Of a stretch of 40,226 nt of DNA, positions 30,401-32,580 are shown piece by piece. Location of the stretch: contig DATDRM010000037.1 of the NCBI GenBank assembly GCA_035291705.1, forward strand, positions 1 through 40,226. The letters run 5' to 3'. The stretch's first letter is position 1. Each line of letters begins with the position of its first letter. A program made the position numbers and the translations under genes. Origin of the DNA: Anaerolineales bacterium. Lineage in GTDB: Bacteria > Chloroflexota > Anaerolineae > Anaerolineales > UBA4823. The notes beneath the pieces are model-generated. The model worked only from the letters and a program-made list of their open reading frames with translations, was not told where the DNA came from and did no database searches.

Positions 30401-32095
30401 CGCACCCTGCCCGGCGTGGCGCACGCCGAGGACAATCTCTACACCTGTTCCCAGGATACGATCGCCCATATTATCGATCAAGTTAAACAGCTGGAGTTGA
30501 ACCGGGTGGTGGTCGCTTCGTGCACGCCGCTCACCCACGAACCGCTCTTCCAGGATGCCATCCGCCAGGCCGGGCTTAACCCGCATCTCTTCGAGATGGC
30601 CAATATCCGCAACCAATGTTCGTGGGTGCACTCCTCTGATTGGGAAGGAGCGACCGCCAAGGCCAGGTCGATGGTACGCATGGCGGTGGCGCGCGCCAGT
30701 GAGCTGCAGCCACTGAAGACCTCCGAAGTGCCGGTCAACCATGCCGCCCTGATCATTGGCGGCGGGATAGCCGGGATGACTGCTGCACTCACGTTGGCCG
30801 ATCAGGGCTTTCCAGTCCATCTCATCGAGCGGGAAGAACAACTGGGCGGCAATCTGCGTCACCTGCACTACTTCCTGCCTGCAACTGCGTCTCTGCCGCT
30901 TCCTTTTCCCTCCCCTCAAGAATATCTCGCCGAAACGGTCGCCCAGGTCACCCGGCACCCAATGATCCAGGTTTACACGCAAGCTGAATTGATCGAGACC
31001 GGCGGATTTAAAGGCAACTTCACCTCCACGATCCGCCGGGATGAGGGCACATTCCAGGTGGGACATGGCGTGATCCTGATCGCCACGGGCGGCGTCGAAT
31101 ACAAGGGACGTGAATACGGCTACGGCACGCATCCCGGGATCCTTACGCAACTGCAATTCGAGGATTTCCTCGCCAACCAACCAGCTGAGATCAGCGACCT
31201 CCAATCTCTGGTCATGATCCAATGTGTTGGCCCAGGCGAGAAGTATTGCAGCCGCCTGTGCTGCACCACCGCCCTAAAGAACGCCCTCAAACTCAAGGAA
31301 CTCAACCCGCAAGCCCAGATCACGCTGCTCTACCGTGATATCCGCACCTATGGATTCAAGGAGCGCCTGTACACTGAGGCGCGGCGAGCGGGGGTCAGGT
31401 TCATCCACTTTGATTTTGATCGCAAGCCGGTAGTAAGAGTCAGTGAACAGCAAGATGCAAGCCGCAATCTGGGATCGATTACTGTCGAGGTGTGGGAGCC
31501 GCTGCTTGACAGGGAGATCACGCTGGAACCGGATCTGCTCGTGTTGAGCACACCTGTCGTCCCACCAAGCGGGGCGCGCGAGCTGGCTAGCCGGCTCAAG
31601 CTGCCGGTAGACATGGACGGTTTCTTCCTGGAGGCGCACGTCAAGTTGCGTCCGGTAGACTTCTCTGCAGACGGTGTCTTTATGGCCGGCCTGGCGCATT
31701 ATCCCAAGTTCCTCGACGAAACGATCGCCCAGGCCCAGGCAGCAGCCTCGCGGGCTGCCAATATTCTTTCACAGGAATTCATGCTGACAAACGCCCGCGT
31801 GGCGGTGGTAGACCCGCTAAAATGCGTCGGTTGTTTGACCTGTGTCCGGATTTGCCCTTACGATGTGCCGCGCGTGCGCGCTGACTTTGCCGGTGTTGGC
31901 AGTATCAGCGGCGCAGCGTATGTCGAGCCAGCCATCTGCCATGGATGTGGTACATGCGCCGCGGAGTGCCCAGCGCAAGCCATTCAGCTGATGCACTACA
32001 CCGACGCACAGACCCTGATGAAGCTGGATGCGCTTTTCAGACGCCAACCGGAAAAGGCAGGTTTTGTGCCCGTGACAAGCATAGAGGTACGCTGA
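27467..32095 (+). CDS. Giant HdrA-like / GltD(NfnB)-like / HdrA-like fusion oxidoreductase (HdrL-like), 1542 aa
   Basis: HdrA N-terminus ([35 protein letters not shown]). Inserted GltD-type module (CRDACPSGQ...[51 protein letters not shown]). HdrA core ([36 protein letters not shown]). Second HdrA-like unit ([43 protein letters not shown]). C-terminal 2x[4Fe-4S] motifs. Confidence 0.85.
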   Translation: [1542 protein letters not shown]

Positions 32096-32580
32096 TGGCC
32101 GATCAAGACTTCCAACCCGAGATTATCGCCTTCTGCTGTCACTATTGCGCCTATGCCGCCGCCGACCTGGCTGGTTCCATGCGGCTGGAATACCCAACCT
32201 CGATCAAGGTGATCGAACTACCCTGCTCCGGCAAACTCGACGTGCTGTATGTCCTGCGCGCCTTCGAGGACGGTGCTGACGGGGTAATGGTGGCTGGCTG
32301 ACTGGAGGGCGACTGTCATTACCTGGAAGGTAATCTCAACGCCCGGCGGCGAGTTGAATACGCCCAGAAGTTGCTGAAGGAGATCGGCCTGGAAAGCCAG
32401 CGGATCCAGATGATCAATATCTCCTCAGCGATGGGCGGCCAGTTCGCCTGGTCAGCCGCCGAAATGACGGCCGAGATCAAGCGTATCGGAGCCAACCCGC
32501 TGAGGCAGAATGGAACTGAGGATCATTTGACCCAGGAAACCCCACCAGCTGAGGCCAGCCTGGGAAACGAAGGATTGTAG
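32095..32580 (+). CDS. mvhD: MvhD-like selenoprotein, in-frame UGA (32299-32301) read as selenocysteine
   Basis: Track ORFs 31945..32301 and 32371..32580 are in the same frame. The read-through gives ...GADGVMVAG-U-LEGDCHYLEGN..., collinear with the Cys paralog ...GADGVYVVA-C-PIGNCHHVRGN... through the shared C-terminal G(P/A/S)NPL motif. Hairpin downstream. The start overlaps the upstream stop (TGATG). Confidence 0.8.
32307..32344 (+). promoter_or_regulatory. SECIS-like stem-loop 5 nt downstream of the UGA
   Basis: GGGCG-ACTGTC-ATTACC-TGGAA-GGTAAT-CTCAA-CGCCC, with outer stem 32307-11/32340-44 and inner stem 32318-23/32329-34. The same architecture occurs in the second UGA-containing paralog and is absent from the Cys paralog. 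Confidence 0.55.

Follow-up and report, generated by a model that had tools for sequence, protein, structure and literature searches.

The FrhD/MvhD/VhuD proteins form one of the commonest prokaryotic selenoprotein families and made up 19 of the 285 bacterial selenoproteins in a 2006 survey. A list of verified selenoproteins includes VhuD, with two selenocysteine (Sec) residues, Desulfobacterium autotrophicum HRM2 has Sec-containing mvhD1, mvhD2, mvhD3 and mvhD5 next to HdrA/HdrL, and Syntrophobacter fumaroxidans has a Sec-containing FrhD. A 2026 review describes Sec-containing [NiFeSe] hydrogenases, among which it includes MvhD/VhuD, as exclusive to sulfate reducers and methanogens, and the published accounts consulted on hdr-mvhD-metVF clusters in Anaerolineae mention Sec for formate dehydrogenases only. 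Here we describe two mvhD genes with an in-frame TGA codon in a stretch of 40,226 nucleotides from an Anaerolineales bacterium (assembly GCA_035291705.1, contig DATDRM010000037.1, positions 1 to 40,226 of the forward strand), referred to below as the window. From their sequences we infer that both encode bacterial selenoproteins that belong to the MvhD/FrhD/VhuD family. The Sec-MvhD family and its mechanism are already established, and the broad, conserved occurrence in Chloroflexota is a modest extension.

The first gene, copy 1 (32095..32580, + strand), encodes a 161-residue [2Fe-2S] protein of the MvhD/FlpD family with a predicted Sec at residue 69. Its ATG at 32095 overlaps the TGA stop of the upstream gene for a 1542-residue HdrL-like protein (ATGA), its only in-frame TGA lies at 32299..32301 (context VMVAG-U-LEGDCHY), and its terminator is TAG at 32578-32580. 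The peptide around the UGA reads GVMVAG-U-LEGDCHYLEGNLNAR. The initial annotation had reported two open reading frames (ORFs) in the same frame here, 31945..32301 and 32371..32580, parted by the TGA, and had proposed that read-through restores a full-length MvhD-like protein. Both ORFs are present in the ORF list as described, and the read-through product matches the Pfam profile PF02662 (FlpD/MvhD) from end to end and across the TGA (profile positions 1-123 of 123, E = 3.5e-48, 163.1 bits against a gathering cut-off of 22.3). The product also aligns end to end with the solved MvhD/VhuD chains, with E values between 4e-40 and 3e-33.

The description of a single recoded gene was right for copy 1 but incomplete: another gene with an in-frame TGA of this kind lies 6.7 kb downstream of copy 1, directly after the second giant Hdr-like gene. 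Copy 2 (38792..39205, + strand, with TTG at 38759 as a possible alternative start) encodes a 137-residue MvhD/FlpD protein with a predicted Sec at residue 67. The UGA predicted to be read as Sec is at 38990..38992 (+ strand; context VMVAG-U-LPGDCHY), and the gene terminates at an ordinary TGA stop at 39203-39205. Its read-through product covered PF02662 completely (1-123 of 123, E = 2.2e-45, 154.0 bits against the cut-off of 22.3), and in the public assembly the gene is called as a 66-residue fragment.

In an alignment of 25 sequences (A1), the TGA of copy 1 lines up with the first Cys in the G-C-x-x-G-x-C-H motif. This position, column 69 in copy-1 numbering, is Cys in most homologues and otherwise a TGA-derived X or W; C15, C18 and C44 do not vary, and C74 reaches a conservation of at least 90%. 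The Cys-type MvhD paralogue of the window (26928..27467, + strand) has TGC at the Sec column (VVAC-PIGNCHH) and lacks a selenocysteine insertion sequence (SECIS), and the pairing of the UGA with the first motif Cys of this paralogue, put forward in the initial annotation, was confirmed by the alignment.

We scanned relatives with one genome per GTDB species, which returned 80 loci. TGA was present at exactly the Sec column in 48 of these loci, all from species-representative genomes. Chloroflexota-lineage titles, mostly Anaerolineae, were carried by 45 of the 48 TGA genomes (Anaerolineae, Anaerolineales, Chloroflexota, Thermoflexales, Promineifilaceae and the like); the other three were titled Gemmatimonadota, 'uncultured bacterium' and Thermodesulfobacteriota, the last with a different paralogue. 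The closest relatives were Chloroflexota, mostly Anaerolineae, as had been suspected from the sequence of the window, and the complete genomes CP070764.1 and CP070785.1 are among the relatives with the TGA form. The Cys forms came mostly from Deltaproteobacteria/Thermodesulfobacteriota. Orthologues with TGA were also found on metagenome contigs, and the arrangement Cys-MvhD, HdrL, Sec-MvhD recurred in many TGA genomes, the two columns being about 5.15 kb apart. Two relatives differed at the next conserved Cys of the motif, C74: the closest genome relative (L007, 6205-6225) has TGA at the Sec column and TAT (Tyr) at C74, and a metagenome contig (L002, 1430-1450) combines TGC at the Sec column with TGG (Trp) at C74. 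Such substitutions may be errors or mark decaying copies, or C74 may be dispensable.

A change of one base in a normal TGC or TGT codon would be enough for the TGA to have arisen as an error of sequencing or assembly or as nonsense noise at the strain level, and some relatives (L002, L018 and L057) do carry Cys codons at this column. However, four independent metagenome assemblies have the identical TGA (L003-L006; ENA ERZ27254791 with contig k141_690399, ENA ERZ27254851, JGI 3300025327 and JGI 3300002407), which excludes a sequencing error, and the same column holds TGA in 48 other genomes and in the second paralogue of the window. We give this explanation a negligible chance. Six of the closest database proteins (P0001, P0003, P0005, P0006, P0008 and P0010, from JGI except for P0006 from ENA) have Trp at the Sec column. 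The DNA of P0001 (L001, 570-572) reads TGA and not a Trp codon, so its Trp comes from a contig translated with a code in which TGA is Trp. On the DNA-level evidence of P0001, the Trp at the Sec column reflects a systematic fault in the annotation of short contigs that bear selenoproteins. The misannotation foreseen for copy 1 has in fact occurred, with public calls giving fragments of 68 and 69 residues or rendering the TGA as Trp.

The reading frame stays open for 64 more codons past the TGA in 50 of the 51 TGA forms. Across codons +1 to +5 after the TGA, synonymous differences in the TGA forms were 0.352 and non-synonymous differences 0.126, compared with 0.458 and 0.177 upstream of the TGA. 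Purifying selection acts downstream of the TGA. If the TGA were a genuine stop, copy 1 would be a pseudogene or a split gene, with a 68-residue N-terminal fragment and a C-terminal protein starting from TTG at 32371, and this would agree with the two pieces in mechanical ORF lists and public gene calls and with the use of TGA as a stop elsewhere in the window. The 23 codons between TGA and TTG would then be left untranslated, yet they hold the invariant G72, H75, G79 and N80 and the near-invariant C74, and the synonymous excess right after the TGA equals that upstream of it. The would-be start, codon +24, reads TTG or ATG in just 16 of the 51 TGA forms; in the remainder it is a Leu or Ile codon that does not serve as a start. 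A pseudogene would not keep both the TGA and the hairpin described below in 48 species genomes and two paralogues. A genuine stop is in our judgement highly improbable.

The hairpin that the initial annotation had placed 5 nt after the UGA of copy 1 was found at 32307..32344 (+ strand) and is a predicted bacterial SECIS (bSECIS). Its lower stem pairs 32307-32311 with 32340-32344, its upper stem of 7 bp pairs 32318-32324 with 32328-32334, and its apical loop is GGA at 32325-32327 (U-GGA-A). The hairpin has an energy of -16.8 kcal/mol (z = -2.98), and 1 of 200 shuffles was as good. The predicted hairpin of copy 2 (38997..39036, + strand) has a lower stem at 38997-39002/39031-39036, an upper stem of 7 bp at 39008-39014/39020-39026 and an apical loop AGUUA at 39015-39019; its energy is -18.9 kcal/mol (z = -4.73), and 0 of 200 shuffles were as good. 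No comparable hairpin was present in the Cys paralogue, where z was about -1.0 to -1.3. The published bSECIS criteria (PMC13188914) comprise an apical loop of 3-9 nt with an upper stem of 4-16 bp, a G in the first two loop positions, a distance of 16-37 nt from the UGA and a minimum free energy of at most -7.5 kcal/mol. Both predicted hairpins satisfy all four, with a UGA spacing of 23 nt in copy 1 and 22 nt in copy 2, and the hairpin noted earlier for copy 1 agrees with the published bacterial model on every constraint.

The strongest evidence for a SECIS came from comparison among homologues. The motif ATTACC-N(3-7)-GGTAAT followed the TGA codon in 51 of 51 sequences and a Cys codon in 3 of 58 (Fisher p = 6e-28, for sequences that are phylogenetically non-independent). 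The codons that form the hairpin top, +6 to +11 (H-Y-L-E-G-N), were essentially fixed in the TGA forms as CAT TAC CTG GAA GGT AAT. Their synonymous difference was 0.006, against 0.34-0.46 in the flanks, and the same codons varied freely in the Cys forms. In a covariation analysis of 49 distinct TGA-form sequences the upper stem was invariant and the lower stem was paired in 84.8%, versus 27-59% in slid controls.

Three Cys-codon orthologues (L018 at 6205, L057 at 3562 and L002 at 1430) retain the intact apical hairpin of the SECIS (CATTACCTGGAAGGTAAT). In these three, Sec was probably replaced by Cys recently and the SECIS persists as a fossil, as is known from other selenoprotein families. 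In a Thermodesulfobacteriota genome (L073, 2326) a divergent Sec-MvhD paralogue reads GVFVFG-TGA-HIGDCHYLEGN and has the same hairpin top, CAUUACCUGGAAGGUAAU; this genome also encodes an MvhD of the Cys type at 6196. That the two phyla have this SECIS sequence in common could reflect common ancestry or horizontal transfer.

Several results weigh against selenocysteine insertion. The TGA and Cys forms belong largely to separate clades, so the contrast of 51/51 with 3/58 is not phylogenetically independent; the within-clade contrast at synonymous sites is the sequence-level comparison that addresses this. The invariant upper stem gives no covariation, and the lower stem is loosely kept with weak covariation, only 2 pairs having changed on both sides. 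Because covariation is weak, the argument for a SECIS rests on the synonymous-site constraint. No relevant family reached its gathering score in an Rfam scan of the whole window at gathering thresholds, and a scan of a 171-nt region at E <= 10 returned nothing relevant, only chance matches well below gathering scores. Neither selA, selB, selC nor selD was found in the window or in about 0.8 Mb of related loci. ARAGORN detected no tRNA-Sec in the 40-kb window or in 54 loci (53 related loci and L003, the contig of the window itself), and tblastn with E. coli SelA, SelB and SelD gave no match in the window or the related loci; both searches covered gene flanks only and are uninformative. In the literature, single-cell genomes of Anaerolineales encode SelB and Sec-containing formate dehydrogenases, and there are reports of a SelB gene in A. 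thermophila, of Sec-containing formate dehydrogenases in Rifle Chloroflexi and of tRNA(Sec) in Chloroflexi. With these points considered, the in-frame TGA codons of copies 1 and 2 are very probably recoded as selenocysteine.

The stop codons of the 25 genes of the window were TAA in 10, TGA in 9 and TAG in 6, and the only internal TGA codons among these genes were those of copies 1 and 2. The genes that end in TGA include PBP2/mrdA, both giant Hdr-like genes and the receiver, in agreement with the initial annotation, which had regarded TGA as a normal stop elsewhere in the window. We rejected a genome-wide reassignment of TGA on this count.

The UGA might also be recoded locally to an amino acid other than Sec, either to Cys by selC*/selB* (a tRNA(Cys)UCA that resembles tRNA(Sec), with a SelB paralogue) or to Trp or Gly by near-cognate or reassigned decoding. 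A selC* tRNA(Cys)UCA with selB* is known in some anaerobes and would use SECIS-like signals, and JGI gene calls print W at the site. However, selC*/selB* has been reported for Firmicutes, Thermodesulfobacteria, Nitrospirae and Proteobacteria and not for Chloroflexi, and the W of the JGI calls is an artefact of another genetic code, where the DNA reads TGA. The frequent use of TGA as a stop in the window also counts against this alternative, and Trp or Gly is implausible on a conserved Cys column that would ligate an Fe-S cluster. We consider recoding to another amino acid very unlikely.

We compared the Sec column with the known structures and ligands of the family. The solved VhuD chain of M. 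maripaludis (9sfi_K) has two non-standard residues, printed X, which align with Cys18 and with the TGA column of copy 1, the TGA column being the second of the two. The VhuD precedent named in the initial annotation was apt in this respect. In M. marburgensis MvhD, Cys16 has been described as an 'additional', non-ligand cysteine; it corresponds to Cys18 of copy 1, and Cys67 corresponds to column 69. Our search of the literature on residues that ligate the [2Fe-2S] cluster of VhuD/MvhD returned only this statement on Cys16. Because five Cys are conserved, a [2Fe-2S] cluster needs four ligands and the equivalent of Cys18 is a non-ligand, column 69 would by elimination ligate the MvhD cluster. 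Column 69 also adjoins the residues equivalent to M. marburgensis His68 and Asp71, which lie near or coordinate an unknown ligand bound by an HdrA Cys pair.

Copies 1 and 2 resemble the VhuD of Methanococcus in their PF02662 membership, in the Sec column and as [2Fe-2S] adaptors that dock on an HdrA-type flavoprotein. In archaea, SECIS elements are placed in the 3' untranslated region, whereas the hairpins here are bacterial, in frame and directly after the UGA, and VhuD has a second Sec where copy 1 has Cys18. Against the NCBIfam VhuD model NF045873 the copies scored 155.8 and 144.5 bits, below the cut-off of 215. There was no hydrogenase domain among the annotated genes of the window and no [NiFe(Se)] hydrogenase gene in the window. 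Because of these low scores and the lack of hydrogenase neighbours, we do not assign the copies to VhuD proper. BamF of the class II benzoyl-CoA reductase is likewise a bacterial selenoprotein homologous to MvhD that links a [2Fe-2S] cluster to an HdrA-type bifurcating flavin adenine dinucleotide (FAD). However, its Sec19 (C-x-x-U) appears, judged by motif position and not by alignment, to be at the extra non-ligand Cys position (Cys18 here, Cys16 in M. marburgensis), and BamF is more than 100 residues longer than the MvhD copies described here.

The window starts with cell-division genes, gltX, glnS and a tRNA-Gln, followed by a Wood-Ljungdahl block with carbon monoxide dehydrogenase (CODH), acetyl-CoA synthase (ACS), the subunits of the corrinoid Fe-S protein, RACo and a methyltransferase. 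Between the tRNA-Gln/GlnS region and the CODH/ACS cluster there are also a 429-residue ORF (8159-9448, - strand) that has no Pfam match at E <= 1e-5 and, adjoining it, a two-domain multicopper oxidase (9471-10622, - strand). After the Wood-Ljungdahl block come malic enzyme, a 301-residue flavoprotein, an HdrA-like protein of about 1050 residues and the Cys-MvhD, then the first HdrL-like gene, Sec-MvhD copy 1, a response regulator and a histidine kinase with a cyclic-nucleotide-binding domain, and last the second HdrL-like gene, Sec-MvhD copy 2, a small PF05635 gene and MetV.

The HdrL-like partner of copy 1 (27467..32095, + strand) encodes 1542 residues in which HdrA is fused with a GltD-like NAD(P)H/FAD module (Pyr_redox_2, Fer4_20 and Fer4), and the partner of copy 2 (34248..38762, + strand) encodes roughly 1504-1530 residues. 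Both proteins match HdrA2/HdrA and glutamate-synthase small-subunit models, in all cases below the equivalog cut-offs. The HdrL-MvhD module known from D. autotrophicum HRM2, a fusion of HdrA to an NAD(P)H module like the small subunit of glutamate synthase that is directly followed by mvhD, occurs twice in the window, where both large proteins have HdrA, Fer4_20 and GltD-like Pyr_redox_2 regions, with an ATGA overlap at the junction of HdrL with mvhD in copy 1 and a 29-nt gap in copy 2. As in the deltaproteobacterial Sec-MvhD/FrhD proteins, the genes belong to the same family and come immediately downstream of HdrA or of HdrL, its fusion with glutamate synthase. HdrL1 and HdrL3 of D. autotrophicum contain Sec, whereas the HdrL partners here are Cys-only, and the context in D. 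autotrophicum and Syntrophobacter is sulfate reduction in Deltaproteobacteria, in contrast to the Wood-Ljungdahl/MetVF context in Chloroflexota, mostly Anaerolineae, described here.

Between the two HdrL-MvhD(Sec) modules, at 32592-34206, two genes that overlap by 8 nt encode a receiver-only response regulator of 134 residues and a histidine kinase whose N-terminal part is a cyclic-nucleotide-binding domain. A kinase with the same domain set follows Sec-MvhD in L017. It is possible that this pair regulates the HdrL-MvhD modules.

The MetV-like gene downstream of copy 2 (39651..40226, + strand; DUF5981, C-terminal part of methylenetetrahydrofolate reductase) is cut by the end of the window. In the longer contig L003, MetF (methylenetetrahydrofolate reductase) follows MetV, which places metV and metF next to hdrA-mvhD, and an unassigned stub of 70 residues comes after metF. 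In the relative L042 the order is HdrA-like, Sec-MvhD, MetV, MetF, an HdrCB-like CCG/Fer4 protein and a formate transporter. In the Moorella-type HdrA-MvhD-MetVF arrangement, too, an HdrA-type gene and metV/metF flank MvhD in an organism with the Wood-Ljungdahl pathway; the published descriptions consulted on the Moorella-type MvhD do not mention Sec, whereas the MvhD here is Sec-encoded and its HdrA is an HdrL-type fusion of about 1500 residues. Because copy 2 lies directly upstream of MetV/MetF, homology and synteny suggest that it is part of a Moorella-type electron-bifurcating methylene-tetrahydrofolate (methylene-THF) reductase within the Wood-Ljungdahl gene cluster.

The gene between copy 2 and metV (39247-39603) encodes a 118-residue PF05635 protein ('23S rRNA-intervening sequence protein', a four-helix bundle). 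It is flanked by inverted repeats of 29 nt made of GAAGGNT heptamers (39204-39232/39607-39635, 86% complementary). The region 39204-39635 resembles a cassette of about 430 bp that was inserted here, because the gap between mvhD and metV in L042 is only about 70 nt.

In the mechanism that we propose, the hairpin 5 nt past each UGA would act as a bacterial SECIS during translation. Its invariant top of 6-7 bp, AUUACC(U)/(A)GGUAAU, together with an apical loop that contains G, would recruit SelB loaded with Sec-tRNA(Sec), and the UGA would then be read as selenocysteine instead of stop, yielding the full-length proteins of 161 and 137 residues. Sec would replace the first Cys of G-C-x-x-G-x-C-H, one of the four presumed ligands of the [2Fe-2S] cluster. 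Each MvhD, translationally coupled to an HdrL-like flavoprotein or encoded directly after it, would pass single electrons between FAD and partner modules. From homology and synteny, the role of MvhD is most likely that of a [2Fe-2S] adaptor that feeds or drains the FAD of HdrL. More speculatively, and in our view improbably, the two Sec-MvhD and the one Cys-MvhD could form a selenium-dependent switch between HdrL/HdrA bifurcating modules of the Wood-Ljungdahl pathway in subsurface Anaerolineae, in which selenium would ligate the [2Fe-2S] cluster and tune its potential and the response regulator and kinase could control the switch.

The findings reveal no new mechanism, and their value lies in an annotation correction, a second copy and a clean SECIS signature. 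In dozens of Chloroflexota genomes each HdrL-MvhD complex has one wrongly annotated subunit, given either as fragments of 66-69 residues or with Trp at the conserved Cys column. The frozen hairpin CAUUACCUGGAAGGUAAU, which overlaps the H-Y-L-E-G-N codons, would be a simple search signature for this selenoprotein subfamily. At least two adaptors beside Wood-Ljungdahl and MetVF genes would need selenium in Anaerolineae that are widespread in sediments and aquifers, and such a need bears on trace-element limits for subsurface carbon cycling. If the proposed switch were true, methylene-THF reduction, and hence acetogenic carbon flow, would be selenium-dependent across a Chloroflexota lineage.

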